64,000 nucleotides of DNA from a virus: positions 1 to 64,000 of IMG/VR virus record IMGVR_UViG_3300030419_005383. One strand, written 5' to 3'. The first letter of the stretch is position 1, and each line of letters starts with the position of its first letter. The notes beneath the pieces were generated by a model, which was given only the letters and a program-made list of their open reading frames with translations, was not told the origin of the DNA and ran no database searches. Below are positions 3,324-47,439 of this stretch, one piece after another. Both the position numbers and the translations under genes were made by a program.

Positions 3324-3929
3324 ATGTACCTGAAACTTTCCGAAATGAAACCCGCCGTGGCTGACGCTTTGCGTCGGGCTGGACACACCCGACCCGACAT
3401 CGAAGTTGTGGTCACCGAGACCATCGATTCGTGCGGTGGCTCGAAAGGCGCCCGTGTTTCGCTGACGGCAATCCGTCTCGCTGACGGGTTCTCGAAAACA
3501 CAAACCGGGAGCTGGGGCGGTCCGAACGCCTATGAGACCCGCGCTGCCGACCACGTCCGTGACATGGCCTTGCCTGCCGGCTACGCTGTGTACCGTGGAT
3601 ACGAGGGCGGTAACCTGTCGGGATACGGTCGCTTGCTCATGAGCCCTGCCGATGTCCAGACCATGGCCCTGCCAGGTGACACGGGATTGACCGATGACGA
3701 CAAGCTGGCGCTGTTCGCCATGCGAGGTCTGAAGCCGGCCTATCGAGGTGAGTGGGTGCGGCGTGCCACGGGTGGCCGGGTGACCTACGGGTCCGATGAC
3801 CCGACCTATGCTGCGCTCGCGAGCGCTGGCCTGGTCAAGGTCTCGAAGAACGGGGCCATGCGGATCACCACTGAGGGCAAAAACGCGGTGGCTGACTTCA
3901 ATCCGCGCGCACTTGGAGTCTACGCTTGA
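3324..3929 (+). CDS. hypothetical phage protein, possible C-terminal winged helix
   Basis: AGGAGAACCG-ATG; C-terminus LASAGLVKVSKNGAMRITTEGK resembles a wHTH wing. Confidence 0.7.
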   Translation: MYLKLSEMKPAVADALRRAGHTRPDIEVVVTETIDSCGGSKGARVSLTAIRLADGFSKTQTGSWGGPNAYETRAADHVRDMALPAGYAVYRGYEGGNLSGYGRLLMSPADVQTMALPGDTGLTDDDKLALFAMRGLKPAYRGEWVRRATGGRVTYGSDDPTYAALASAGLVKVSKNGAMRITTEGKNAVADFNPRALGVYA

Positions 3930-3953
3930 CGCACCATTGTGTGTGCTTAAGAT
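3926..3953 (+). promoter_or_regulatory. early promoter
   Basis: TTGACG-N16(ends GTGCT)-TAAGAT. Confidence 0.8.
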
Positions 3954-3980
3954 ATTAGTGACGCACCGACAGGGGAAATT

Positions 3981-4469
3981 ATGAAGATCATCAGAAAAAG
4001 ACAATACATCGACGCCGTTCGTTACGAATTTTACCTCTACTCGCGCGAGACTTTCGATGCCGATGCCAGAGAGGAGCATGGTAAAAACAACCTGCGCGAC
4101 CGCCCAGCGTGGGTCAACACCACGAGCATGAGCCTGGGTACGGGGCGCGTCGGTGACAACCGATACGCATGGAAGGCTGGCCCCTTCCTATGTGACGAAA
4201 ACGGGAACCCAGACATCAGGCCCCGTAAAGAGGACGCCTACCTTAAGGCTGTGCAGGCTGACACTCAACAGGGACCAACGCAAGGCCCATTCTACAGCGG
4301 ATACAGGGTCTATGCCATTGCTGAGTGCGAGTGTGGACGGCGCCTGACCTTGGACCGCTTCACTAACGCCTGCCGCTGCGGTCTGATGTACAACCAATCA
4401 GGCCAATGCTTGGCCGCAGTCAGCCAGTGGGGGGAAGAAACCGGGGAGCACTGGACAGAATGTTATTGA
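3981..4469 (+). CDS. hypothetical protein with C-terminal Cys cluster
   Basis: CECG...CRCG motif; AGGGGA RBS. Confidence 0.7.
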   Translation: MKIIRKRQYIDAVRYEFYLYSRETFDADAREEHGKNNLRDRPAWVNTTSMSLGTGRVGDNRYAWKAGPFLCDENGNPDIRPRKEDAYLKAVQADTQQGPTQGPFYSGYRVYAIAECECGRRLTLDRFTNACRCGLMYNQSGQCLAAVSQWGEETGEHWTECY

Positions 4470-18160: not shown

Positions 18161-18405
18161 TGCCGACTTTTGATTTTCCATCCGAACCATACTTCGTCAT
18201 CTACGACGAAAACGGGAGACGTGTCTATTTCACATTCCGTGAGATTGGAGACCGTGTCCGCAAGGAGGCGCCTGAAACCCTGGGTGAGCACATCTTTGTG
18301 CAGATTGACGCCCTGGGTTTGAACAAAGAGTTCGAACGGGCAGGGACTCCGCACTCGCTTCCTTACACTTTTGCTGAAAAAAACACTGGAGAAAACAATG
18401 CCTGA
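18160..18405 (+). CDS. hypothetical protein
   Basis: TAATG coupling, GGAGG RBS. Confidence 0.6.
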   Translation: MPTFDFPSEPYFVIYDENGRRVYFTFREIGDRVRKEAPETLGEHIFVQIDALGLNKEFERAGTPHSLPYTFAEKNTGENNA

Positions 18406-18985
18406 TCCCCGGCAATACAATCGTGAAGACGTAATCAAACAACACATTAGCAGCGCAGTTGGAAGCGATGCCGCATTTATGGCTGCTCGGCATGATCCCA
18501 AGCTTCAAGGCACCTTTACCATCAGCCATAAAGGGCAGTTGTACCACAATGGAGTTCTTGTTGATCACGCAATGATCAGTGACTTTATGGTGTACTTGAG
18601 CGGCACATACGGTGTTAGGCCGCGGGCAGATGAAGTTGTTGCTGGGTTCACTTCTGCCGCAACGAAGAACCCGAAAAGCATTATGCGGAAACGAAAACGA
18701 ACCACCCATGTTCCGCCCAGGCTTCTCCATGAAGTTGATCAAACGGTTCGGCTTATGAGAGGGGAACTGACCACGAAGAAGATCGCCTTGAAGTTGATGC
18801 CACACGAATACGAGGATTCAGCGCGGTCCGTGGAAATGCTCATCTCCGAGGCTATGAAGCGGCTTGGCTACATCAAGAAACGGAAGATGATCAACTGCGT
18901 CCGTCAGAGCCGGTGGGAACCAAACCCAAAAGCAAAGCGGGTTGGGCTACCTCAAAACGATAGGCTTGAGGGGGGAGAAGAATGA
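18398..18985 (+). CDS. VapE-helicase-derived protein lacking the ATPase core (N-domain plus winged helix)
   Basis: Aligns by eye to both the N- and C-terminal domains of 20985..22310. Confidence 0.65.
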   Translation: MPDPRQYNREDVIKQHISSAVGSDAAFMAARHDPKLQGTFTISHKGQLYHNGVLVDHAMISDFMVYLSGTYGVRPRADEVVAGFTSAATKNPKSIMRKRKRTTHVPPRLLHEVDQTVRLMRGELTTKKIALKLMPHEYEDSARSVEMLISEAMKRLGYIKKRKMINCVRQSRWEPNPKAKRVGLPQNDRLEGGEE

Positions 18986-19479
18986 TTTTAACCCTATTCG
19001 CGTTGATGCTTGCGGGCGATTTTTATCGCCCAATAGCCAAGCCGGAGCCGAAGCCATACGCCGATATGCTCGACACTATGACGGGATTCCGCGGCGTTGA
19101 GTTCCGCTCTGCGCCGAATCTGGGCCCAGAATTTCTGCTCTACGAAGACAACATCGATACAACCGTTTACCGGCGCCCAGGTGATGATCTGCAATTCTCT
19201 GGTGTTGAGATGGACGATGTCTACTACGTCTTCTGGCGGGGCAAATTCCTGGGAGGAGTTGCTTTGTGTTCCATCGCCGTCCACTGCCTGGAGCCTTTGT
19301 ATCTCGCGATTGTGCCAATGCTTGGTGAAGGAATCTTTGAAGAACACGAGGACCGAATTGTCTGGCCAGGCGAGCAAGCCTTTCTGGTTCTGAAACGAGA
19401 AGAGGACGGCACCGGACGGCTACTGTTGCTTGACAAAGAGACCATAGAAGAAATCCGACAGACGCCTTCGGAGAAGTGA
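18982..19479 (+). CDS. putative exported/periplasmic protein
   Basis: Short hydrophobic N-terminus MILTLFALMLA; GFRGVEF...YYVFWRGKF. Confidence 0.65.
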   Translation: MILTLFALMLAGDFYRPIAKPEPKPYADMLDTMTGFRGVEFRSAPNLGPEFLLYEDNIDTTVYRRPGDDLQFSGVEMDDVYYVFWRGKFLGGVALCSIAVHCLEPLYLAIVPMLGEGIFEEHEDRIVWPGEQAFLVLKREEDGTGRLLLLDKETIEEIRQTPSEK

Positions 19480-19742
19480 TGAACGCCACACAGGAACGAC
19501 TTGACACCCTTTCAGCGGTCCAGGCCTTAGTTGATGCGCTGGGAGGCAGGGTCAAGCCAGCAGCAAGGATCATGGGTGCATCTGAATCAAGCTTGTACAA
19601 GGTTCTCAAGAAAGAGAACGCGGCCCCGACGCTCGATACATTGGCCCGATACGCCAACAGAATTTTTCGAGAAACTGGAATCCGTCTCATTTTTACTGTG
19701 ACGCCCGATTTTAAACTTCATTGGACCGTCAAGAACGAATGA
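19479..19742 (+). CDS. XRE-family HTH regulator
   Basis: AARIMGASESSLYKVLKKENAAPTLDTLARYA. Confidence 0.75.
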   Translation: MNATQERLDTLSAVQALVDALGGRVKPAARIMGASESSLYKVLKKENAAPTLDTLARYANRIFRETGIRLIFTVTPDFKLHWTVKNE

Positions 19743-19747
19743 TGTTT

Positions 19748-19776
19748 TTGACGAGCTAATCTCAACACCCTATTCT
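19748..19776 (+). promoter_or_regulatory. sigma70-type promoter of the replication operon
   Basis: TTGACG-N17-TATTCT. Confidence 0.7.
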
Positions 19777-19782
19777 CTTCTG

Positions 19783-19920
19783 GCCTGCCGGGATTGATCC
19801 CCCGGCCTCGTGAAAGCGAGTCAGGCATCTTGGTTGGGCCCCCGCCACCAAACTAGTCGTTGCTCTGCGCGGTTGGTGGCGGAGCGGCCCCAGCCAGGAG
19901 TGCGCCTGCCGCGACCACTA
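19783..19920 (+). ncRNA. structured 5' leader of the primase gene (three-way junction, long hairpin, possible pseudoknot)
   Basis: Extensive base pairing beginning at the predicted TSS; see findings. Confidence 0.5.
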
Positions 19921-19936
19921 AAGGAACCAAGAACCA

Positions 19937-20998
19937 ATGAAACTCTGGATTGAAAACGTGAAGCAGGCAGCAACAACGACACAGGTTGCTAAACTTCTCG
20001 GAGCCAAACCAGGCAAGAACAAGTCATTTGGGCCATGTCCAGCCTGCAAGAACGAAAGACGAAGCAAAACTGATCAGCGTAAGCCTTTGACGATTTATTC
20101 TACTGGAAAGTGGGTTTGCTACGCATGCTCAGCCAAGGGCGATGGCGTGGACCTTGTATCTATTCATCTTCACGGTGCCAGGCTTGGCGCGGTCAGTAAG
20201 GATAAAGTGAAAGCCGTTCGGGGGTGGTTTGCATCCCATGGCTTCTGCGAGAATGGCCAGGCTACACCAAAGATTCCAACCGGGCGACCCCAGCGCGAGA
20301 AGAAACAGGAAGACCAGAACGTCTACGTCAAGCGGGGAAGACCACCGGCACACGAGATCGTTTCTCTTTGGAAATCGAGCCTGTATCCCAACAAGGCCGT
20401 GGAGAGCAGCCGGCCGAACGACCCACTTGTCAAATGGCTGCTCAATCGCGAATTCTCCCCTCAGACCCTGAAAAACACAGGACTCATAAAAGTCACGCCA
20501 CTGGGCGTAGACTATGAATATCCTGAATGGTGGCCTCGCCAGTGGTCATACTCCATCCGGCTGATCACACCAGCGTATGAACCCAACGGAAAGGTCGCCT
20601 CACTGCACGGGCGAAGCGTCGTGAAGAGCGGCCCAAAAACGCGCTGGCCGCTCGGCTACGAAGCGGGGGGTCTCTGGATGGCAAACCGGTCAGGCGTACA
20701 CATGATGCGCGGGCAGAAGCCCAGGCTGAGCGGCGTTCTAATCTGCGAAGGAATTACAGACCTGATGCGGGCTGCTTGCCAGAACATCGACCAGGCGTTG
20801 GGACTAGCTGTTCTCGCTGGGACATCCGGCTCGTTCCGTCACGTCCACCAAGCCAGCATTCCAAAGGATCTGCCAGTCTATCTGGCTACGGATGACGACG
20901 GGACTGGTGATAAGTATGCACGTATAGTTGTCGAAAAGCTGAAGCACAACAGAATCTACCGCTTGAACCTTGCAGGAACTGCCGATGCCCGATCTTGA
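19937..20998 (+). CDS. DNA primase (Zn finger plus TOPRIM)
   Basis: CPAC...CYAC; LICEGITD; LATDDDGTG. Confidence 0.8.
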   Translation: MKLWIENVKQAATTTQVAKLLGAKPGKNKSFGPCPACKNERRSKTDQRKPLTIYSTGKWVCYACSAKGDGVDLVSIHLHGARLGAVSKDKVKAVRGWFASHGFCENGQATPKIPTGRPQREKKQEDQNVYVKRGRPPAHEIVSLWKSSLYPNKAVESSRPNDPLVKWLLNREFSPQTLKNTGLIKVTPLGVDYEYPEWWPRQWSYSIRLITPAYEPNGKVASLHGRSVVKSGPKTRWPLGYEAGGLWMANRSGVHMMRGQKPRLSGVLICEGITDLMRAACQNIDQALGLAVLAGTSGSFRHVHQASIPKDLPVYLATDDDGTGDKYARIVVEKLKHNRIYRLNLAGTADARS

Positions 20999-35256: not shown

Positions 35257-38200
35257 TCATTCATCTATAGCAGATTCAGCTTGGCGTTTTTTCTCTACTG
35301 TTGCTTTAGACAAATCTCTCAGGGATGAGCGCAAGGCACGCTGAATCTTAGTTTCTTGCGTCTCTACAACATCAGGAACAATACCTATTACGCCCATTGC
35401 CTCGCCGGGAGAGAACGCGGCAGGGTCTTCACCAGCAACCAGCTCTGTACGAGGCACCATTGTTTCCGCGGCAACCGTACCGGGTTGTGCTTGTATGTAT
35501 GTTGACGTACCAGGCAGTCTCACTCGCCTGTGTCGGGGCAAATAATGTGAATCAATGTCATCGAGAAACCCTTCACGGTTTCCGAACTGACGAAATTGAT
35601 AGCCAACCTCCAGCATGGATTCAACGGCGCCCATGTTTGCGCGATCTAAGCGATCAAAAAGCGTCATCTCACGCCCTGCAAAAGGTAAAGGCGCCATATT
35701 TTTCCACATATGGAACAGCAGGGGACCAAGAGATCCGCCGGCTTTATAAGAGACAGTTTCTCCAGGCACCTTTTGATATTCAGGGTCACTTGGCCCCCAA
35801 ACTTCCGCACCAAACAACTCGTCAACGACGTACCCCCCACTGGGGCCATACCGGTCAAGATTGACGAACCAAGATGGGATAGTGCCTGAACGCCGAAGGC
35901 TTCGATTGAAGTAGAAGTTTTGTTCAGTAACAGTGACAATTGGAAGCATTAAAACAGGGTTCGTCATCGAGATAAACTCTCGAAGACCCTGATCACCTTG
36001 CTTGGTGCCATGGTAAGCAGCCGCATCGAAAAGGTTCAAGAAAGGCATCATTGCTGTAAAAGCGGGCAATTCAGGCGCATACCAGGCAACTTGCTTGTTT
36101 TTCATCCGGTTTAGAACCGACTTCATTGCAAACATGACCGGACGGCTTTCGAAGTAATGCTCTTCAACAAGGACAGGTTCTTCTTCAAGCCAGAGGTTCT
36201 TGCTGCCTTTGACCAGGCGCATCTGTGCCAGGATTCTGCCTGGGTTGGTCAACAACGTCTCGTAGAATAAATCCAGATTCTTGCGCTGGAAACTGTAAAA
36301 CATAAACACAATACGCATGAAGGATTTTTCGAATTCAGTCAGCGCCGAATAGTCCATGCCGATCTTGCGCGCCCTCGCCGCGGCTTGACTGGGAGACAGG
36401 CCGCGCTCTATTTCAGAAATCCAGACAGATACGCGGAAGATGTTGTCCATCGCGGTCGCGAATTCCAGAAGCGTTTCCTTCCAGGGTCGATAAACTTTCT
36501 TAATGAATCCGGTCGGTGACTTATACCACGGGGCCGTGTCCAGCTTGTCTCGCAGAATCTCATGGACCGCTCTCGCTGATTCAGCCTGAGGGAAGCTGCT
36601 TTTCAAACTGTGGGCAATAGCCATATTACCGAGACGATTTGCTGTATATACACGGTAATCTTTCGTGATTAGGGGGCGCGCGTTTGGCTTCCAGCCACCC
36701 TCTCCCCACATTCTGGAAACAACAGCACCGACCAAATTGGAGTTCTTGGTAACCAGGCTTGTCCCCATCCTGGCCATGGTCGGAACTGCCTGCGCTGTAA
36801 TTTTCCCCGCCTTTACCGCCCCAAGGCCTTGATGAACAGCCGCAGCAATTCCCATAAACGCGGCCATGTAGTACGGTAATTCAACCAGACCGGTCCCCGT
36901 TGTCATGTGCTGCTTCATTCTGGAGTGCGTCAACGGATTCAGCTCAAAAACGGTGTCAACGGCTTGAGCCAGTGTCAGCTTCGCCTTCTCGGTCGGGCCC
37001 AGGTCTTCTGGAATAAACTCAGGGCCAAGCTCTGTTCCTAACAGGCCCTTCTTGGTAGCCTTTAGGCGCCCCTTAGCGGCTATATCCTGCGCCTTACGTG
37101 ATTTTGCTCCCGTCCAGGCGTAGCCGATTTGAGACAGCCTATTGGTCATCTCTTCAATTTCTTTGATGGCGGCTTCCGGCAGTAAAGTAGTGCTCCCGTC
37201 AGGGAATGTGTGTTGTTGGAAACCTGATTTTGCGTACTTGATTCCCCATTTTTGAACATACTTATGCGCAACCGTGTAGGCCTCAAGATCATCATTGTTT
37301 ACGGTCAAGCGCCAGTCAGGTTGACGCGGTGGTTTTGGTCGCGGTGTTTGAAGCCTTCTTTTCTCAGGTTTTCTGATTGCTTGATAATTAAAGCTCATGA
37401 TCTGATTGATGTGGTGATGCACATTCTCAACGAATGCGATTCGATCAATCGACGTGTCAGGTGAGAAGCCGCGGTGTGAGGTCAGTTCTCGGACATCTCC
37501 CGTGTACCCGTACTTTGCCAGGTTGTGCGAAAGCACAGTCAAGATTTCCATGAACCGCATCCGCATGATCATTTCAAGAATCGCCGTTGCGGCGTCATAC
37601 TCATACCCGCTAACAATCAGGCCCTTTTCTTGAGCCAGATTGATCATCTCCATGAATCTGCCTTGATAGAAATTCTGATAAATGCTGATCAGCTCATACT
37701 CATCAAGGTTCTTCACAATGCTAAGATCATCGGCTCCAGACAAGGATATTGCCAGATTTTCGGCCCGAACCAATACTTGTTTTTTACGGCGAACAAGCCC
37801 ATTGTGAATCACCCGGATCGCATCTGACACCGCATATCTGTCATTGTCAGACAGTTCCACCAAGCGGTCAGGATTGGTTGGGTCAATGTAAGATCGAATA
37901 ATATCCAATGCTTGACGATCTTTTGGATGCAGCCCCCAGTATTCAGTCAAGTACCCCTGGATGTTGTCCAGCTTTCTAACCAACATCTGAAGATCGAAAC
38001 CTTCATCCAATTGATCAATTTTGATGTCAAGTTCTTCTTGGGTTTTGAACCTTAGATCTTCACGGCTGATAACTCCAGACAGATCTCTTTCCATTTCTAA
38101 AATCGGTTTCAGGTCAGAAAGGGCAACAGGTGCATTGAGGTGCTCAATCAAGTGGTCATACAACTCTTGGACTGTTCCTTCCTTGTTGCCTTTTCTCCAT

Positions 38201-41200
38201 TCAGAAACCGCACGAACAAAGAATCGTGGATTGTCTTCACCCAGCCGAAGCGAGTTGTTTATGAGGTCCCGAACCGCTGGGTCCATCAGGTCTTTGCCAA
38301 ATTCTGGCACAATGAACAAATCGCGGAATTTCCTTCTGACGTTGTCGATTGATTTAAACAAAGCCCTGTTGTCAACTTTGTCGAAAACCTCGCCCACATA
38401 CCGAGTAAAGGCGAGGGCCAAGGAACGGCTCATTCGATCATCGTATCGATTGACTCGTGCAGCCACGCCTGCGCTTACATCAACCAGAACCTCATGAATG
38501 TTTTGCCAGTCGGCAACCGCAATCTTTGTGAAGTCACTTTGACGGAAAAACCTGTCAGGCAGAATGTTGCCCATTGGTTCATTTGCCAGCTCATGTACCA
38601 AACGCTTGATGCGAGCAGCCTGAGGCGGATCAAACTCAATGTAGTCGGCCTCATCAAGCAACCGTGCGTTGGGGTCTTCCTGCATGTAAGATCGAACAAG
38701 TCCGGTAGCATCGCCCCTGCTGACCAATTTGATTCGCTTGACAAGCTGCTTGGCGTTTTCACCAACAGCATCCATCAACCGGTCAGTGACATCTTTTTTG
38801 ATTCGGGACACCCTGCTTGCTGGAACAATCGTCCGAATCGTCATCCTCACTACGTTTTCTGCACGCTGACTTCTCTTAAACCGCTCCGCTGCCTCTAAGC
38901 CCATAGAGCGAACAACAAGCGCGATTGCGTCGATCTCGTCTCCAGCCTTCACGCCAAGCTCTTGTCGCAACGACTCCTCATCGCCCATCAACCGCATACC
39001 CGCACGCCTTCGACCGGCTTTTCCGACCGGTGATTCAAGAACCCGCTCAGCCATGGCTGTTGGCACCATTTCAGGTGAAATGTTCTTCAGTCGAGTGAAC
39101 ACATCCGAAACAATCCCTTTCGACACTTCTTTGAGAAAATCATCTGCCGACAAGGGGGGACCGAGCTTTTCGTCACCTCCTTCCAGTCGGAGCCTTAAGT
39201 CACGTCCTTCCAGTCTTTTCAAAACATCTGAAATGATCCCGTCCATTAAGCCTTGGATTAGATCATCAGGCAATTCTACTGGGACTCTCGAATCTGCCAT
39301 AAGTTTACGAATAGCAGTATCAGCAATATCAGACGCAATGCGTTGAGCTACTTGCCGATCCCGTAAACGAAACACCTTCATCAGTGGAGTCAGTCCAGAT
39401 TTGTCATCCGCTTGCGAGACGGTCCTGGCGACATATCCCTCGATGGACTTTTTCACGCGGCCAGCAACCGAACGCTTCAACTGAACGACTGGTCGCTTTT
39501 GAGTCTTCTTCAAAACGTCGTCGGTGATCTTTGCGGCAGGCATAGCCAGCAGCTCGGACGGCCTGTACAGCTCATCCCAGAACTCAGCCAGGTGCTTCGG
39601 CAAATTGTGACGCTTCTGACGGATTAGGCGCCAAAGATTGCGAAGCTCACCGTGAAGCTGACCAATCAGTCGATTCACGCCTGGATTGTACGAAGCCCTC
39701 TTGGTTTCCCACCATTGAGCAAGGGCATTAGCAAATTGTTCGTGTCCAGCGTCAGTAAGTCGCCCGTTTTGGTCTGTATCAAAAAAGCGGAATAGCCAGC
39801 TTCGCCACTTGTCACCCATAATGGCCTGCAACAAGTGTCCATTTTCATGAGCAAGTGTATCAAAGCGCCCAGTCGAGAAAAGGCGAAGTAGATACGAGGC
39901 CGTTCCAGACTCGTCCGTTCGAACTTCGAAACTGCCGCGTGGAGAATCCGGCCCGCCGTCGTAGCGAATCGATGTTGGAAGAGCAGGCTTGGCCTCAGTC
40001 GGAGCTATCCGAAAGGCATCCGCGAGGACATCAAGGACTGTATCATCTGGTTGAACTCCGAATCGCTCAATGGCTCTGTCGTAGGCTGCGCGGTTGACGC
40101 TTGGGTGCTCGTACCAGTTTCCTCCAGCTTCTTGGGAGAGTCTGGCGAGGTACTTTCCTGTTGGTTCTCCTTCTGGCTGCCGGGGGAGGATTCGTTCTTC
40201 TGGGGAGAGTTTTTTGAGGACATCTTTGGCATGGGATTTAATCTCTTTTTCGAATTTATTTTTTGACTTTAGATCAAACCCAAAGATTCGACCATCGGAG
40301 GTGGCGGCAGCAAGTATGCCGTTTCCGTGGACAGGATCCAGAGCATGCAGATCTGCTTTCGGGACGTTTACATAATAGAAACCCAGGATGGGTGACCTCT
40401 GCTCACCCATCCGAACATAGACACCACGATAGGGTGATTCCAGCCCAAACATCTCTTTGACCAGCGCCTCGCCAGTGGAATGCGAGATGAGCTGCTGGTT
40501 CGCCGCTACCCATGTTTCCCAATGGAAGCGACCAATGGAAGCATCTTCTGGACGGCCCAATTTCTTATAGACTTCGGGTACGATCTTATTAAGGGCGCCT
40601 TCCACGGCCTCATAGAACAGAAGACCGCGGGGCCCATCAAATACCGACGCAAGACCTGGTTTTTGGGACCATGGCCGAAATGATGCGGTGCTTTTGTATC
40701 CACCTTTTGGCGCCTGCCATCCAGTGTTCAGACTGCCGGGATTTCCGTATTCATTGGCCCGATTCGCGTAGTCATAGATGTGCCTGGTCTGCCATACATC
40801 CAAAACAGCCGTATCGGGTCGCCCTGCCATCAAAGCGACAAAGCTCATCACTTTGTTTTGAATGCCGACCCCCTGGCTCATCGTCCAGAATTGCCGGCGC
40901 ACTTCGCTTCCAGACAGATTTTGGTCGGACATCAGTCTATGTATGGCCTCCAGTTTAGTCATGCCTGGATACCGATCATGATTTACAGGCAACCGCTCGC
41001 TCATCCGCCTCAAGAACAGATCACCAAACGCATTGAGATTCATCAACGCCTGTGTGCCTGGAGAGCCCGAATACTTGTTAAGATTCACGATGGCCCGAGC
41101 ACGCTTCCGCCAGGCGGCTTGCCAAACGTCATCCCATTCGCCGCGCAGAGCGACATTGATGAATTCGTCTACGCCAGCATTGACGGCATCAATGAATCCT

Positions 41201-44200
41201 GCCTCTTGAATCCAAACAGAAGAATTTCGGCTGAGCATGCCCCACAGAAACAGCTTCGCTGTATGGCGCGGTTGAGCCCGCCCGGCGGCATATGCTTCGC
41301 CAAATTTCTCAACAACACTAAAGCCTTCATTTACAGCGCTCTGCTGTTCAGCCGTGAGGTTCTCTTTCAGGAAATCAACAACCGCATCAGGGTTGTTGTA
41401 GTATTCGATCATCTTATACGGGGGCTTCACCACGTTCTTATCATTCGTGGCGTTAAACCAGAACTTCTTCCATTCGGCTTCACTCGAAAGCATCTTGCCT
41501 TCTGGCCAACGCTCCAGCAAGGCATCGATTTTAGCTAATACATCGTCACCACGGCGGGTCGGATTCAATGGAAGGGCCTTTTCCTTCACGCTGTCACGGG
41601 GCTTGAACCTCGTCTTGATCGCCATCGGGGCCGGAACAGCAGCGAGAACCTCAATTCTGAACGCCTCACGAATCCGTCTACGTTCTTGTTCTGGTAGAGC
41701 CTCACGCTCGGCCTTGGGCATCTTTGCGTACTTGGCCAGCGCCTTTTTTCCTATGGGAACAATTGGCGTCTGCTTGGAATCCAGAAACGCCTCAACGTCT
41801 TGGTCCGTGAATTCGGCGCCTTCATGTTCAGCCAGGTCGCGTGTAATTTTTGGCGGGACTGGCGCCTTGCTGGGTAATGGCTCTACCATTCCCGCTGGAG
41901 GGGCCACAGATGGTTCCCCTTCTCTGGGGGCCGTCAAAAGATCATGCTGAATCCTCATGGCCTCAGAAAGCGCGTTTCTGTCTGTTTTCGCGATTCCGAG
42001 CGCATCAGCCACCCACGAAAGCAGCCGGCTCCAAACCGACTCCTGGGTGTCAACGAACACGATGTCTTTCAATATTGACTGGAATTCTGGATTAGAAAAC
42101 GCTTCAGCAAGAAACTCCTTTGCGTTTTTCAATCCATAAGGAAGGGTTCTCACCACCGGTTCATCGTCAACTATAAGTTGTTCCAAATAGTCAACTTCCT
42201 CACCGAGAGTCTCTCTTCTTTCTTCTTGCCTCAAGTAGCCATCAAGCCTGTCTCTGACGTACTCCCAAAGATGATCCAACTCTATAGAGGCTTTTCCCAA
42301 TGGGGTTGACGGGCCCTCACCTAAGCCTTCGTTGTACCGCATTACGGTTGCTGCATGGACCAGCTCATGGAGCGCGGTTTTTTCCCAATCGCCAGACCGC
42401 AGCTTTTCATTGGGTTGATATAGATCGATATGGGGACTAGGCCGACCCGGCCCGAGCCAATAGTATATTCCCGTCCAACCCTCTGGATGCGCGGCCTCTG
42501 TGGTTTCTATCGATACATCATCGGTGATGAACTCTTCAATATATGCAGCGATGGCCCTTATTTGATCGGTTGTTCCGTTCTCTTTTATCCAGTAGACAGC
42601 CTCTTTTGCGCTTTTCCACTGCTTGGCTGCTTTTCTAAATTTAAGATTTGAATCAGCACGAATACTGGGCGGGATTGGCATGGGTGTACGGATCGCAGGA
42701 CGTGCGCCATTCCAGAAAACCCTGGAATCTAAGCCTCGGTAAATCAAATTGTAACGATGTAGCGCACGTGAAACGTCACTTGAGTCCGCATCTCTTACAG
42801 CATCAACCAACCGAAGCGCCTCTTCGGCAGCTCCACCAGCCTGAAGAATCCTTGCTTCAACGGCCTTCCAGTCGATAGTGTCGTCAACTTCAATAAATTC
42901 TTTGAATAAAGAATCGATAAATTCATCACTGAAAACATCGCCTATATCGTCAAGAAGTCGTCTGGCCTCACCAAAAGCGACCTGCCTGAATGTTTTAATC
43001 GCAGGAAGAATCTTCTCTTGGTATTCCTTGATGGAGCCGATTTCGGTCAGTAGTTCACGGGCCTCTTCATAAATCGCCCGATCAACATCGTTTAGTTCTT
43101 GGTCCTTGAGACCCATGAACCGTGAAAAGTCTGCTGGTGTATTGAACGCCCTGCTTACCACATCTGTTGATACGCGCTTCTTAATGCCATCGGCCTTTAT
43201 CCTTGCTTGTACTCGATCTTTTCTCTCTTTTTCTCGCTTAATCACGGCCCGTTCTGGCCCTGTATACCGAGACAGACCTTTGGTTTGAGATTCAAACCTA
43301 TCTTCGGCCTTAGCATAGGCGTCGAAAACTGCTTCATCGTTCGCCAGAGTGAGTGCAGACGCCTTGCGGAGGACTGTTCGCTTTAACGCTTGAGCCATCG
43401 GAGAGACCCACTTGTACTCAATGGACAGTTCAGAACCTATCGGTAAACCGCCACGGCGAACTTGATATTCGCGATTGATGCCACGAAACAGTGAGGTCCA
43501 TTCATCCGATTGAAAAATAGAATGAAGTTCAGCATTGAGACCGAGCTGTGTTTTGGTGTCTTTGAGGCCCTCAATCAATCCGTACAAATCGCTCCGCCGA
43601 ATGTTTTTCTGATCAAACCGCTCAATCACGCCCTCATAAACATCTTCTATCGTCCATGGTTCTCTGTCCAAAAGATGCGACTTTTTGAGGCTACCCTTAT
43701 CTGAAATTAGAGGCTCAATATCTTTAAGTGCAGCCCGAAGAGCATCTATGGCGCCTTCTGGAATCCCTTTAAGTACAGCGCCTTCTGGAACTTGAGTGAG
43801 ATCCTGAAGGATTCTTTCTATGTTGTTGAGGTCACTCCAAACGAGGCGTTCTGCCATTTTGACCTGTTGACTAAAAATACCCCCAATGGCCCTGATCGCA
43901 TGCCAGGGTGTATATTCAAATCGGCCATATTTGGTTTCAGCCGAGAGGCGGGTTCCCATTGTTGCGGTTTCAATCAATTGACGAATGCTGCCGTAGCCAC
44001 TCTCAACATCGAGATCTTCCGGCCTGTTGGCGTTCCAGGCTCTCTCAAGCGAGTTCTTGACCCACGATGCTGACTCAAGCAAATAGTTCGGCCATGCTTT
44101 CGGCAGCTCAGGGGGCTTGTCAGGGGGCTTAAGGATAACTTCCGGGTCAAGCGAAGGCAGCGGATCTCTGGCGCCCTCGACGCGCGGGGATGTCAGCCAG

Positions 44201-47200
44201 TCGGCGGGGCGCTCCATAAGCTCTACATCAACAACAATCTTCTTTTTGCCCATTCCGCGCAGGGCTTCAAGACGATGCCGACCATCCATGATGCTGTGGA
44301 ATGTTCCGTCTGCATTGATGGCGACTCTTGGCGGGGCCATAGGTTTACCCGACTTAATGAACTCAATCGCTCCTTTCAGTCTTCCGCTTCCCCATAGTTT
44401 CTGTACAGGAATGTCATCGATGTTGACGACACGGGGCTCTATGTATTCCAATCCGGCAAGGGTTCCTGAGTCTTGACGCATCAACTCTTCTACGTCATGA
44501 CCCATTTCTATGATCTCGTCGCGCATTTCCCGAGCCCGGTCTGCCCGAGATCGATACGACACACCCTCGACTTCAGTCACCGCTTCAACTGGTTGACCTA
44601 AGACCTCGACGCGGGCGGGGGGCTCTACACCCTCTGGCGTTTGAAAACGAGCACCAGGCCCAGGTTGACCGCCAACCCGATGGTTAATCTTTTTGAAGAA
44701 ATCAATCGGGGTGACGATGTCAGGAATCATATCGTCAGATGAATGAGCAAGCGCCTGATGCTCAAGAAGCGCAAGATGTATGACCAAGTCCTGGTCCGTC
44801 AGGTTCCCCGCTTTGATGTATTCGCTCAGCTCATCCTTTACGCGCAGATACTCAGGGTCTTTGCGCATACTCATTTCAGTCGGGGTTCCGTGCTGTAGAA
44901 ACCGCTGCAAATTTCCCGTGTAAAGAGAACGGCGACCTTTCATTGCGTTGTTGAAGGTCTTGATAAATTCTTCTGTGTCCTCAACGCCCGTCTCTTTGAG
45001 TCGGTTCTCGAAGGCCTCCAACCGATACCCACTCATGCTGTCCAGGGGGCTGATCCCCAGCTCGATCATCTTTGCAGCCAATTGCATTGTTGCGTTGTTG
45101 ACCGCAGAAACCGCGTCCAAGTCTTCCTTTTTCTGAGGGTCTAAGGCGGCTTCTTCTGGTGGCTTCACAACCCTTTGATAAATCTCAGGTCCGACATACG
45201 CTGACATCATGTGCGTAGCCATAGACAGCTTACTTGTAATCGGGGCGCCATCTAATGCTTGAACCGCCCTTTTGGCTGCAACCGAACCCCGCAATGCGTT
45301 TGCGGATCTTCTTACGCCAAACCCAAGCGTTCTGAAAATTGGAGATTCCCAAGGAACAAGGAAGTCCGCCGAAAGACCGCCAAGCATTCCATACATCCAG
45401 TAACCTTCACCAGGCCTGCCTCCGTTTGCCATCATGGCTCTTCGCGTTGCCATCATCGCACCAGAGTCACCAGTAGCCACGTTAGCCAGGCTTTCCGCCA
45501 TCCAGCCGGTCAAAGTCAACTCTTGATTCTTGTCTTTGACTCCAAGTACCTGATTCAGAGAATCGCCCGCAAAAACCGGAGCATCCATCAAAAGCTGTAA
45601 TTGCGGCTCCATCAGCAGGTCCGCACTTCTCATGACCCGGCTCATGGTCCCTTCAATCAAGTAAAGCTGATTCCCTTCCCGAACAGTGGTTGTCATATAG
45701 GAACCAACCGACTCTTCGAGCTTTGTGGTCGGAGCCGCACGTTCAATCATGCGTCCAGTTGTCTCGATGACTGATGCCGTATCAGGAACAGATTCAGCGA
45801 ACTTGAAGTTCATTGAAACCAAGGTTCCAAATTTCACCTGATTCAGCCAGTTTTGGACTTCAGACAAGTCCACTTCATCTTCGACATCATCTCCAGCCAA
45901 ATCGAGTATCGTCTCAGTAATCCAAGGCCAGTCCGATGTGCCGTAGGCAGCATTCATCGCCTTGCCAAGGTTGCGGTCGTACCTCGCCCAAGATTCATAA
46001 GTCTTACGCTGTTCCGGTGTTGCCTCTTGCAAAATATGAACAAAAAGACGCACATCCGGCATCCGTGTGGGTCCGCCATACTCCTGCCTGAGACTGCCTG
46101 GAACATCCACATATGAGACATTCTGCATCTGATCTAAAAGAATTCCAGAAACGTTCGAGTCTGGATTTTCCTTCGCATACCGAACAGTTTCCATCAACTG
46201 AGCCCAAGCATCCGACCACTTGGCTTCTGAAGTTCGGACTCTGCGCTCTAAATAATATGCGCCCCTTTCCTCAGGGGTCATGAAAGAAGCGCCGGCAACG
46301 CGCTCAAAGAAATCGTTGCTCTTTTCATGAAATTCTCGATAGAGCTGAGCCATCGACTTCAACGCTGGAACGCCTTCTCGCTCCTCATCAGACGACAATG
46401 CGGTTGTGACAAGCAGTGCCGGCAACTGCATAGGCGAAACGGTTGCAACGCTTGACGGAGGCAGCGATTCCATTGCCTCAATCTGACGAGCAAGCGGAAT
46501 CCCGGCAGCGAGAATGTTGTCCATTGCGGTAGCTGATTCAGGGTCCGTATCGACAAGCTCCTGCCGCGCTGACCGGATCTTCATATTGGCTTCTTGAACG
46601 CCTTTTGCCCACTCTTCAACTTCAGCATCTGCCTGTTCAGGCGTCTTGCCGTCCATATGGACCTTCTTCTGCTTCAATACATACCGGGCTCCCTCAAAAG
46701 CCTGCGCCATACCTTCGGCAGTAAGCTCTTCCGCCATATTGCCTGCGCGGGAAAGCTCAGTCACATCCAGGGTTCGGTTGAAAAGGTCCGCCAAGTAGCC
46801 TGGGTCGTCAATCTCGTGAGCCAGAGCTGTTCCACCAGCAGCGCCACCCATTGCTCCAACAATCCAGCCGCCAGGAATCTTCAGCCGGGAAGCCAAAACA
46901 GAACCACCCGCTGCGCCAACTATGGCTAATTCTTCCGCAAACTCAGGAACGTCAGGAAGGTCCCCCTCTGTGATCTCTTCCTTAAAGGCCGGCTGCGTGA
47001 CTCCGATCATTACATCTTTGAGGCCCCTGAGAAGCTCTCCAGACTCCTGCGCTTTATCCAGGGTCTCTTTGTACTCCGCTTTTCTTTTCGCGGGTTCATC
47101 AGGATCAATAGGCTCGGTGACTGGCAGCACTCTCGGCCCAAAGACTGTCTTACCTTTTTCGATCGTGGCGCCGGGCGTCTCGTCGCCTGGGATTCCCTCT

Positions 47201-47439
47201 ATAAATCGAAACCCATCCTCTGCTTCCCGAACCCTTAAATCAATCCATTCGTCAGATTTGGTCGGGTTATCCACCTTGAGGGCTGCTCTGACCTGCTCGC
47301 CAAGCTCACTAATGCCCGCTTCATAGGCCTCACGGAGGTCTTCGCCTGTCCTTATTTCAAAGCGCGGATCAGGAGCGGGGCCAAGAACTTCTGCCGTTTC
47401 TTCAGTGACCTCGGTTCCCTCAAGCGTCTCTTCAGCCAT
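35257..47439 (-). CDS. giant (4060 aa) polyvalent DNA-ejection/internal virion protein
   Basis: ParB-like DGRHR, two HExxH motifs (LHELVH, AHENGH), HhH-like domain, C-terminal AR..GMDY...FYSFQ. Confidence 0.85.
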   Translation of the reverse strand: MAEETLEGTEVTEETAEVLGPAPDPRFEIRTGEDLREAYEAGISELGEQVRAALKVDNPTKSDEWIDLRVREAEDGFRFIEGIPGDETPGATIEKGKTVFGPRVLPVTEPIDPDEPAKRKAEYKETLDKAQESGELLRGLKDVMIGVTQPAFKEEITEGDLPDVPEFAEELAIVGAAGGSVLASRLKIPGGWIVGAMGGAAGGTALAHEIDDPGYLADLFNRTLDVTELSRAGNMAEELTAEGMAQAFEGARYVLKQKKVHMDGKTPEQADAEVEEWAKGVQEANMKIRSARQELVDTDPESATAMDNILAAGIPLARQIEAMESLPPSSVATVSPMQLPALLVTTALSSDEEREGVPALKSMAQLYREFHEKSNDFFERVAGASFMTPEERGAYYLERRVRTSEAKWSDAWAQLMETVRYAKENPDSNVSGILLDQMQNVSYVDVPGSLRQEYGGPTRMPDVRLFVHILQEATPEQRKTYESWARYDRNLGKAMNAAYGTSDWPWITETILDLAGDDVEDEVDLSEVQNWLNQVKFGTLVSMNFKFAESVPDTASVIETTGRMIERAAPTTKLEESVGSYMTTTVREGNQLYLIEGTMSRVMRSADLLMEPQLQLLMDAPVFAGDSLNQVLGVKDKNQELTLTGWMAESLANVATGDSGAMMATRRAMMANGGRPGEGYWMYGMLGGLSADFLVPWESPIFRTLGFGVRRSANALRGSVAAKRAVQALDGAPITSKLSMATHMMSAYVGPEIYQRVVKPPEEAALDPQKKEDLDAVSAVNNATMQLAAKMIELGISPLDSMSGYRLEAFENRLKETGVEDTEEFIKTFNNAMKGRRSLYTGNLQRFLQHGTPTEMSMRKDPEYLRVKDELSEYIKAGNLTDQDLVIHLALLEHQALAHSSDDMIPDIVTPIDFFKKINHRVGGQPGPGARFQTPEGVEPPARVEVLGQPVEAVTEVEGVSYRSRADRAREMRDEIIEMGHDVEELMRQDSGTLAGLEYIEPRVVNIDDIPVQKLWGSGRLKGAIEFIKSGKPMAPPRVAINADGTFHSIMDGRHRLEALRGMGKKKIVVDVELMERPADWLTSPRVEGARDPLPSLDPEVILKPPDKPPELPKAWPNYLLESASWVKNSLERAWNANRPEDLDVESGYGSIRQLIETATMGTRLSAETKYGRFEYTPWHAIRAIGGIFSQQVKMAERLVWSDLNNIERILQDLTQVPEGAVLKGIPEGAIDALRAALKDIEPLISDKGSLKKSHLLDREPWTIEDVYEGVIERFDQKNIRRSDLYGLIEGLKDTKTQLGLNAELHSIFQSDEWTSLFRGINREYQVRRGGLPIGSELSIEYKWVSPMAQALKRTVLRKASALTLANDEAVFDAYAKAEDRFESQTKGLSRYTGPERAVIKREKERKDRVQARIKADGIKKRVSTDVVSRAFNTPADFSRFMGLKDQELNDVDRAIYEEARELLTEIGSIKEYQEKILPAIKTFRQVAFGEARRLLDDIGDVFSDEFIDSLFKEFIEVDDTIDWKAVEARILQAGGAAEEALRLVDAVRDADSSDVSRALHRYNLIYRGLDSRVFWNGARPAIRTPMPIPPSIRADSNLKFRKAAKQWKSAKEAVYWIKENGTTDQIRAIAAYIEEFITDDVSIETTEAAHPEGWTGIYYWLGPGRPSPHIDLYQPNEKLRSGDWEKTALHELVHAATVMRYNEGLGEGPSTPLGKASIELDHLWEYVRDRLDGYLRQEERRETLGEEVDYLEQLIVDDEPVVRTLPYGLKNAKEFLAEAFSNPEFQSILKDIVFVDTQESVWSRLLSWVADALGIAKTDRNALSEAMRIQHDLLTAPREGEPSVAPPAGMVEPLPSKAPVPPKITRDLAEHEGAEFTDQDVEAFLDSKQTPIVPIGKKALAKYAKMPKAEREALPEQERRRIREAFRIEVLAAVPAPMAIKTRFKPRDSVKEKALPLNPTRRGDDVLAKIDALLERWPEGKMLSSEAEWKKFWFNATNDKNVVKPPYKMIEYYNNPDAVVDFLKENLTAEQQSAVNEGFSVVEKFGEAYAAGRAQPRHTAKLFLWGMLSRNSSVWIQEAGFIDAVNAGVDEFINVALRGEWDDVWQAAWRKRARAIVNLNKYSGSPGTQALMNLNAFGDLFLRRMSERLPVNHDRYPGMTKLEAIHRLMSDQNLSGSEVRRQFWTMSQGVGIQNKVMSFVALMAGRPDTAVLDVWQTRHIYDYANRANEYGNPGSLNTGWQAPKGGYKSTASFRPWSQKPGLASVFDGPRGLLFYEAVEGALNKIVPEVYKKLGRPEDASIGRFHWETWVAANQQLISHSTGEALVKEMFGLESPYRGVYVRMGEQRSPILGFYYVNVPKADLHALDPVHGNGILAAATSDGRIFGFDLKSKNKFEKEIKSHAKDVLKKLSPEERILPRQPEGEPTGKYLARLSQEAGGNWYEHPSVNRAAYDRAIERFGVQPDDTVLDVLADAFRIAPTEAKPALPTSIRYDGGPDSPRGSFEVRTDESGTASYLLRLFSTGRFDTLAHENGHLLQAIMGDKWRSWLFRFFDTDQNGRLTDAGHEQFANALAQWWETKRASYNPGVNRLIGQLHGELRNLWRLIRQKRHNLPKHLAEFWDELYRPSELLAMPAAKITDDVLKKTQKRPVVQLKRSVAGRVKKSIEGYVARTVSQADDKSGLTPLMKVFRLRDRQVAQRIASDIADTAIRKLMADSRVPVELPDDLIQGLMDGIISDVLKRLEGRDLRLRLEGGDEKLGPPLSADDFLKEVSKGIVSDVFTRLKNISPEMVPTAMAERVLESPVGKAGRRRAGMRLMGDEESLRQELGVKAGDEIDAIALVVRSMGLEAAERFKRSQRAENVVRMTIRTIVPASRVSRIKKDVTDRLMDAVGENAKQLVKRIKLVSRGDATGLVRSYMQEDPNARLLDEADYIEFDPPQAARIKRLVHELANEPMGNILPDRFFRQSDFTKIAVADWQNIHEVLVDVSAGVAARVNRYDDRMSRSLALAFTRYVGEVFDKVDNRALFKSIDNVRRKFRDLFIVPEFGKDLMDPAVRDLINNSLRLGEDNPRFFVRAVSEWRKGNKEGTVQELYDHLIEHLNAPVALSDLKPILEMERDLSGVISREDLRFKTQEELDIKIDQLDEGFDLQMLVRKLDNIQGYLTEYWGLHPKDRQALDIIRSYIDPTNPDRLVELSDNDRYAVSDAIRVIHNGLVRRKKQVLVRAENLAISLSGADDLSIVKNLDEYELISIYQNFYQGRFMEMINLAQEKGLIVSGYEYDAATAILEMIMRMRFMEILTVLSHNLAKYGYTGDVRELTSHRGFSPDTSIDRIAFVENVHHHINQIMSFNYQAIRKPEKRRLQTPRPKPPRQPDWRLTVNNDDLEAYTVAHKYVQKWGIKYAKSGFQQHTFPDGSTTLLPEAAIKEIEEMTNRLSQIGYAWTGAKSRKAQDIAAKGRLKATKKGLLGTELGPEFIPEDLGPTEKAKLTLAQAVDTVFELNPLTHSRMKQHMTTGTGLVELPYYMAAFMGIAAAVHQGLGAVKAGKITAQAVPTMARMGTSLVTKNSNLVGAVVSRMWGEGGWKPNARPLITKDYRVYTANRLGNMAIAHSLKSSFPQAESARAVHEILRDKLDTAPWYKSPTGFIKKVYRPWKETLLEFATAMDNIFRVSVWISEIERGLSPSQAAARARKIGMDYSALTEFEKSFMRIVFMFYSFQRKNLDLFYETLLTNPGRILAQMRLVKGSKNLWLEEEPVLVEEHYFESRPVMFAMKSVLNRMKNKQVAWYAPELPAFTAMMPFLNLFDAAAYHGTKQGDQGLREFISMTNPVLMLPIVTVTEQNFYFNRSLRRSGTIPSWFVNLDRYGPSGGYVVDELFGAEVWGPSDPEYQKVPGETVSYKAGGSLGPLLFHMWKNMAPLPFAGREMTLFDRLDRANMGAVESMLEVGYQFRQFGNREGFLDDIDSHYLPRHRRVRLPGTSTYIQAQPGTVAAETMVPRTELVAGEDPAAFSPGEAMGVIGIVPDVVETQETKIQRALRSSLRDLSKATVEKKRQAESAIDE

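Follow-up and report, generated by a model that had tools for sequence, protein, structure and literature searches.

A conserved RNA leader family predicted to hide or expose the ribosome-binding site of the primase gene in marine phages

The window analysed here comprises 64 kb of a 74,295-bp IMG/VR virus record, rated complete by CheckV. A 194-nt intergenic gap, flanked by a helix-turn-helix ORF and the primase gene, holds the leader described below. Genes for a VapE-like protein and an SF2 helicase follow the primase gene on the same strand, and RecE/RecT-like genes and podovirus-like virion genes lie elsewhere in the genome. The ATG at 19937 is the primase start because an in-frame TAA is found upstream of it, at 19919-21. 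Features of the locus, in the order in which they occur, are as follows.

19476-19742: helix-turn-helix ORF of 88 aa, directly upstream of the gap
19748-19776, + strand: sigma70-like promoter, TTGACG, 17-nt spacer, TATTCT (consensus scan, 9 of 12 matches), predicted start at ~19783
19783-19787, + strand: 5' strand of helix P1, GCCUG, pairing with 19822-26; GCCC in relatives
19788-19805, + strand: hairpin P2, stem CCGGG/CCCGG (19788-92/19801-05), loop AUUGAUCC with UGAUC at 19795-19799
19807-19820, + strand: hairpin P2b, CUCG-UGAAAG-CGAG (19807-10/19817-20), an optional third arm of the junction
19822-19826, + strand: 3' strand of P1, CAGGC, common to P1 and to an alternative long-range helix
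19828-19837, + strand: anti-RBS strand, UCUUGGUUGG, counterpart of the CUCCUGA anti-SD strand of relatives
19838-19889, + strand: inner hairpin P4, CCGCCACCAA/UUGGUGGCGG with an apical region of ~20 nt, found in the MFE structure and in every constrained fold
19890-19899, + strand: decoy strand, CCAGCCAGGA, SD-like, pairing with the anti-RBS strand in a duplex scan
19904-19918, + strand: second GCCUG copy and CCGCGACCAC, 3' strand of the alternative helix with 19810-19826
19921-19939, + strand: ribosome-binding region, AAGGA at 19921-25, AACCAAGA at 19925-32 and AUG at 19937-39 (ORF list)
19937-20998, + strand: primase gene, 353 aa, Zn-ribbon and Toprim by Pfam matches, first gene of the operon

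DNA of this phage recurs across several seawater metagenome studies. A scan of bacterial and archaeal genomes yielded no relatives, and hence no hint of a prophage or host; deposited phages gave no blastn match to the region, the single-protein scan of viral contigs found nothing, and a tRNA/tmRNA search of the window was negative. Two + strand ORFs just 5' of the helix-turn-helix gene, at 18371-18985 and 18982-19479, have no Pfam match, and the former has no PHROGs match either. In addition, this podovirus-like 74-kb genome carries an ORF of 4060 aa on the − strand (35257-47439), with no Pfam match at E <= 0.001; in size alone it is reminiscent of the virion RNA polymerases found in N4-like phages.

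Two promoter-like sites were detected in 1.5 kb, TTGACG-17-TATTCT among them. In locus L082, which together with L083 carries the leaders nearest to that of the window (primase 69% identical), the −35 hexamer, the spacing and the position are identical to those of the window at a stricter threshold, which only the window and L082 passed. Other leader types have weaker TTG...17...TA matches at the equivalent position, as read by eye, and in most types such a site ends ~6-10 nt 5' of the first helix. In L037-type loci, the stop codon of the upstream gene directly precedes the leader. A hairpin or palindrome of variable sequence was also observed in the promoter-like region just 5' of the leader, in L026 at ~3840-3870 (e.g. 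TTGGTAG-CTCG-CTACCAA) and at the same position in L041, L034, L009, L087 and L011; in some of these loci the −35-like and −10-like hexamers are mutually reverse complementary. This palindrome may act as an operator or a bidirectional promoter, or else fold as a hairpin in the RNA.

The original prediction described a structured leader of the primase operon that begins at the TSS predicted from TTGACG-N17-TATTCT, and a structured 5' leader starting at this sigma70-like site is supported. RNA of the + strand between 19775 and 19945 has a predicted folding energy of −77.6 kcal/mol, compared with −61.8 +/− 4.3 for its shuffles (z −3.69; 0 of 200 as good), and the − strand of the same segment folds no better than shuffled sequences (z −1.36). 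All sequence elements listed in that prediction were located where it had placed them, including the long hairpin 19828-19899 and the second GCCTGCCG at 19904-11, and both the hairpin and the proposed three-way junction are backed by related sequences. The same holds for the two mutually exclusive pairings that it had drawn for CAGGC, with 19783-87 or with 19904-08, which match the design of the whole family.

Counted from 19783, the nearest-neighbour energies of the states of the window leader are −75.6 kcal/mol (MFE), −73.0 (masked) and −72.5 (three-way junction), all within about 3 kcal/mol of one another. The anti-RBS strand can form 10 bp with the decoy at 19890-99 or 8 bp with AACCAAGA at 19925-32. 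In the MFE it is paired with the decoy, and CAGGC is paired with 19904-08 with further pairs up to 19918; in this arrangement GUG..GCG.G.CAGGC faces 19904-18, breaking P1 and P2b. The window has no GGAG SD; its AAGGA is placed 11 nt upstream of the start codon. In the interval between the two, AACCAAGA is exactly complementary to UCUUGGUU at 19828-35 (duplex −11.1 kcal/mol), and the masked state built on this pairing lies 2.6 kcal/mol above the MFE. When the anti-RBS helix is forced, the unpaired probability of the SD-AUG spacer falls from 0.60 to 0.19. L082 keeps the spacer pairing as CACCUUG/CAAGGUG, with one compensatory change of U-A to C-G, and the helix covers its GUG start. Both the window and L082 lack the GGAG/CUCC core, and the SD-AUG spacer is masked instead.

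Homologues of the primase numbered 47 in the protein collection, and the alignment of 19 of them led to 80 viral and 80 metagenome loci, all marine, from which DNA 5' of each primase start was extracted for leader comparison. A homologous leader was found at about 40 primase loci in marine viral and metagenome contigs, with primases 35-73% identical to that of the window. An exact 14-mer, GGGATTGATCCCCC, is common to the window and a subset of loci, at a similar distance from the start. Distinct leaders with TGATC in the hairpin loop number 29 and fall into about eight sequence types, among which the window leader is a long and divergent member. Of the two major clades of the primase tree, a single one contains all the leaders (33 of 41 rows); the distribution requires three state changes and fits one old gain and a few losses. 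Only one leader hit per locus was obtained over 818 kb, always directly 5' of the primase gene, and the element is present in a single copy in the entire 74-kb genome; it therefore does not represent a promoter class or a general operator. Genes for tRNA (Rfam RF00005) were noticed 0.6-1.2 kb 5' of the primase leader in L002 (2708-2780; 70 bits) and L037 (3319-3391; 66 bits).

Alignment of all 29 full leaders with MAFFT and RNAalifold recovered only 3 pairs because indels misalign the helices. Covariation was consequently assessed on a core subset, on anchored columns and by swap tests in place of the full alignment. A covariance model (R1) built from the core group proved too narrow: four types escaped it, and it gave only weak hits to leaders of the L026 and window types.

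The first domain of the leader is closed by P1, a short GCCC/GGGC helix across the family, and carries P2. This hairpin consists of a stem of 5-7 bp and a loop of 7-8 nt with the pattern N-Y-UGAUC-N, in which TGATC is invariant in 29 of 29 leaders. In the first alignment 91.7% of P2 stem cells are paired and 6 of 7 pairs are changed on both sides; the covariation score was reached by none of 500 shuffles, and slid controls were 31-52% paired. The second alignment gave 98.6% paired cells, with 4 of 6 pairs changed on both sides. Cells with G.U, which would be A.C on the other strand, are frequent, indicating that the + strand folds; a near-relative variant, 19789 C>T, likewise results in a U.G pair. 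The loop is predicted to be fully unpaired in all states of the window leader. The CCGGG/CCCGG hairpin had been proposed as an arm of the junction and nothing else; it is indeed an arm, and comparison of the leaders identifies P2 with its UGAUC loop (19788-19805) as the conserved, putative recognition element. Hairpins with UGAUC elsewhere in the window are as frequent as expected by chance (23 found, ~24 expected by our estimate). A recurrent but weak match of the P2 loop to downstream UGGAU (Trp-Ile codons; −4 to −6 kcal/mol) was discarded as an explanation of the constant loop, since it depends on AUCC and the invariant part is UGAUC.

Compensatory changes were also detected in the other two helices of this domain. 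In P1 of X2, one of the near-relative contigs taken from other samples, 19786 T>C and 19823 A>G convert U-A to C-G, turning the window helix into the GCCC/GGGC of the family. Further compensatory forms are GCCA/UGGC in L011 and GAACC/GGUUC in L002; L082 and contig X3 have a C.A mismatch. As P1 is short and nearly invariant, the swap test is powerless for it and covariation support is small. In P2b, 19809 C>T is compensated by 19818 G>A in X2, X3 and L082. Hairpins at the P2b position are present in the window, L082, L026-type and L037-type leaders and absent from L007-type leaders. Overall, only the UGAUC loop and the GGYUCC anti-SD are nearly or fully invariant; junctions vary and P2b is optional.

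Directly 3' of P1 runs the anti-SD strand (GGGCUCCUGA in the core type), followed by P4, whose position in relatives is conserved, GC-rich and covarying. P4 is enlarged in the window phage; loops of its relatives are roughly 4-10 nt. For the SD helix, the anti-SD was anchored by alignment column and the SD by GGAG, in a register independent of pairing. At the five flanking positions 71 of 95 cells are paired, compared with 51.0 +/− 3.6 in shuffled combinations (0 of 10000 as high), and slid partners give 25-35 paired cells. Position +1 has U-A and C-G nine times each and G-C once, and position +3 has A-U in 7 leaders, G-C in 6 and C-G in 3. The swap test of the SD region, which needs no alignment, showed the same preference of leaders for their own partners (own −19.2, cross −13.5 kcal/mol; 0 of 5000). 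The covariation across related primase leaders proposed as a check in the original prediction is thus present, and the leader is conserved and covarying across a deep phage clade.

The competing partner is the decoy, which across the family begins 2-4 nt 3' of P4 and pairs with the anti-SD strand extended by the 3' strand of P1. With the decoy region bounded only by the end of P4 and the SD, the swap test gave −14.6 kcal/mol for own and −11.9 for cross combinations (0 of 10000 permutations). Since one strand serves both, the SD-paired and decoy folds are mutually exclusive. RNAalifold on the core type returned the decoy fold, and single-sequence MFEs of the leaders switch between the two folds. 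According to nearest-neighbour predictions, the SD-paired fold is more stable than the SD-free one in 29 of 29 leaders, with ddG(OFF-ON) from −0.2 to −8.9 kcal/mol. The equivalent of the CAGGC strand pairs downstream in L082 and X2 as GCACAC/GUGUGC, and in other types GGGC pairs with the 5' GCCC or with the GCCC of the decoy. In L009-type leaders the SD helix extends into GGGC, which would put P1 in competition with both folds; L002 falls outside the scheme. With a covarying SD helix and a helix that competes with it, this is a translational leader of the generic SD-masking kind.

The SD is also masked in L018 and L049, members of the same major primase clade that have no UGAUC hairpin, and masking is therefore the older layer, to which the hairpin was added as an input. 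In these two loci (~3930-4003) an inner hairpin is enclosed by pairing of CUCCGUGG with CCACGGAG; the 75-nt segments fold to −26 and −38 kcal/mol, and the anti-SD is contained in the final part of the upstream ORF. Loci of the second primase clade (L057, L065, L074, L080, L121 and others) exhibit a different feature, a long C/U-rich tract (CCCUUCCCC-like) 5' of the SD, 20-60 nt before the start and conserved across many contigs. No stable SD pairing is predicted for these C/U-rich leaders.

The 155 bases 5' of the primase gene belong to a conserved RNA leader family, uncatalogued until now, in which the ribosome-binding site can be hidden or exposed, and the leader probably sets the amount of primase made. 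We propose that the segment 19783-19939 forms the untranslated 5' leader of the mRNA for primase, VapE-like protein and helicase and belongs to a family of cis-acting translational control elements of uncultured marine phages in which a factor represses translation, a reading to which, taken as a whole, we give an even chance. A trans-acting factor would read the UGAUC loop and stabilise the P1/P2 domain. Because the 3' strand of P1, which closes the P2 domain, is common to the decoy helix, stabilisation would withdraw the shared strand from the decoy, bring the anti-SD onto the SD and repress translation of the primase, a negative feedback of the type found in known translational operators. 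In its absence, the decoy helix would form first during transcription and the SD would stay open. Known translational operators of phages suggest a protein encoded by the phage as the likeliest factor, perhaps the primase, whose Zn-ribbon, a reader of short single-stranded motifs, makes it a natural candidate.

As with the operators of T4 gene 43 (a hairpin with an 8-nt loop) and gene 32 and with RegA sites, a phage replication gene follows a hairpin whose loop, 7-8 nt long in the leader, is sequence-specific, and negative translational feedback would be the expected logic by this analogy. Unlike the T4 operator, which touches the SD, the leader hairpin is 80-130 nt upstream of it and would act by helix exchange. 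The arrangement also resembles expression platforms of riboswitches such as the thiM TPP riboswitch of E. coli: SD, anti-SD and anti-SD competitor strands compete, and the competitor helix shares a strand with the helix P1 that closes the upstream sensor domain. It differs from them in that the sensor domain has no conserved junction core and no Rfam match, and its hairpin loop is the only invariant part, which speaks for recognition by a macromolecule and against a small ligand. In the leaders, neither a match to a curated aptamer nor an invariant junction or internal-loop core was found.

Several other explanations were weighed against this model. The original prediction interpreted the leader as an RNA switch activated, as in IncI plasmid repZ, by a pseudoknot beside the SD, possibly countered by an antisense RNA. 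The switch itself stands in the form of mutually exclusive pairings that bear on the ribosome-binding site; the repZ-like mechanism does not, and we consider it highly improbable. The complementarity between the loop TAGTCGTTGC (19854-63) and GCGACCACTA (19911-20) is real, amounting to 9 of 10 pairs (8 Watson-Crick and one G.U; −8.1 kcal/mol) between segments that are both about half unpaired in the ensemble. However, it is not above chance, as 275 of 2000 loop shuffles (14%) and 90 of 2000 pre-SD shuffles (4.5%) equal it, and it is not conserved, being absent from L082 and confronted with short P4 loops in other relatives. A 47-aa GTG ORF in the leader (19810-19953) has no SD, and in L082 the equivalent frame stops after 9 codons. 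The proposed search for an antisense RNA, here a scan for − strand promoters of the sigma70-like type in the leader and the first 250 nt of the gene, detected none at a conserved place and, in 15 of 17 representatives, none at all. The leader shares with IncI-alpha/IncB repZ-repA (ColIb-P9) a structured region before a replication gene and, in the window only, the loop/pre-SD complementarity; the comparison fails because the conserved pseudoknot, the antisense RNA gene and the conserved leader peptide (repY type) are not found. An element acting at the DNA level, namely a replication origin, priming hairpin, operator palindrome or Dam methylation site, is an equally remote prospect. It would account for GATC in the loop, and origins often adjoin primase and helicase genes, but the G.U pairs described above and the advantage over shuffles confined to the + strand speak for RNA, covariation links the element to the SD of the downstream gene, and GATC is ordinary in the window (290 sites, about 250 expected). 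Hardly more credible is a nut/boxB-like function of P2, in which a small phage protein would bind this hairpin on the nascent transcript and turn RNA polymerase into an antiterminating form for the replication operon, with a possible translational side effect as for lambda N at nutL. The lambda pL-nutL-N leader has the layout of promoter, small hairpin, large stem-loop and first gene. With the lambda pL leader (nutL boxB, RNase III hairpin, N start) our leader has in common the promoter, a promoter-proximal hairpin with conserved, here invariant, loop and freely changing stem, and a large stem-loop before an early gene, the first one of the operon. Its loop of 7-8 nt is of another type than the GNRA-like pentaloop, and neither a boxA-like conserved block nor a second conserved single-stranded block 5' of the loop was found; no terminator-like site was detected within 19000-20500, the element has one copy in the genome, and covariation involving the SD and the decoy is not needed by such a model.

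The two remaining alternatives accept SD masking and differ in what the UGAUC loop does. Masking could depend on folding kinetics only, in the manner of the MS2 maturation gene, with the decoy hairpin forming first and the SD briefly open before it is masked, allowing few primase molecules per transcript; the UGAUC hairpin would then have another role, e.g. in stability or processing of the 5' end. The greater stability of the SD-paired fold in every leader, the position of the decoy, which precedes the SD, immediately follows the inner hairpin and is therefore made first, and masking by a simple helix in L018 and L049 are all in accordance with this explanation. It is nevertheless unlikely, leaving unexplained both the five invariant loop bases on a freely changing stem, upstream of primases down to 35% identity, and the sharing of the P1 3' strand with the decoy helix. 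As in the MS2 maturation (A-protein) leader, the SD is masked by a distant upstream strand enclosing hairpins, and a rival local fold would delay masking; the MS2 leader, however, comes from an RNA phage, folds differently and lacks an invariant loop. The loop might also dock the 30S subunit directly, through the 3' tail of 16S rRNA, as a standby site until the masked SD opens. This tail contains GAUCA, the complement of UGAUC, just 5' of the anti-SD CCUCC. UGAUC is often followed by C, giving UGAUCC against GGAUCA, the loop fits the YUNR U-turn pattern of fast-pairing loops and is predicted to be unpaired throughout, and its invariance across very divergent phages suits a universal host partner. 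On the other side, the match is post hoc, a 5-base match to a 14-nt tail having a prior of ~1% per pentamer with several partners tried, and the base 5' of UGAUC, U or C, cannot extend the pairing. Docking is, in our estimation, decidedly less probable than purely kinetic masking; if true, it would make the leader a structured device for ribosome standby and sensing, and a novel class of riboregulator that reads rRNA to set the dose of primase across one deep clade of uncultured marine phages.

Guided by the phage operators discussed above, we prefer a protein as the putative reader of the UGAUC loop to the 16S rRNA tail or to the absence of any reader. As a class of mechanism, SD masking combined with a competitor helix is well known; what is new, as far as can be told, is this leader family together with the invariant loop and the association with primase. 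The proposed Rfam search returned no family for the window leader (Rfam 15, E <= 10) or for seven relatives (E <= 0.5), and the full-text literature search disclosed no description of a primase leader of this kind. Fremin et al. 2023 (PMC10690425) report 8495 unnamed candidate RNAs from IMG/VR, and the leader family may sit, anonymous, among them.

Very little is known of how uncultured marine phages control the dosage of their replication genes. Few translational operators are supported by covariation, and the leader would extend their number by a phage family; its invariant five-base loop offers a defined handle for a new RNA-protein or RNA-rRNA recognition pair.
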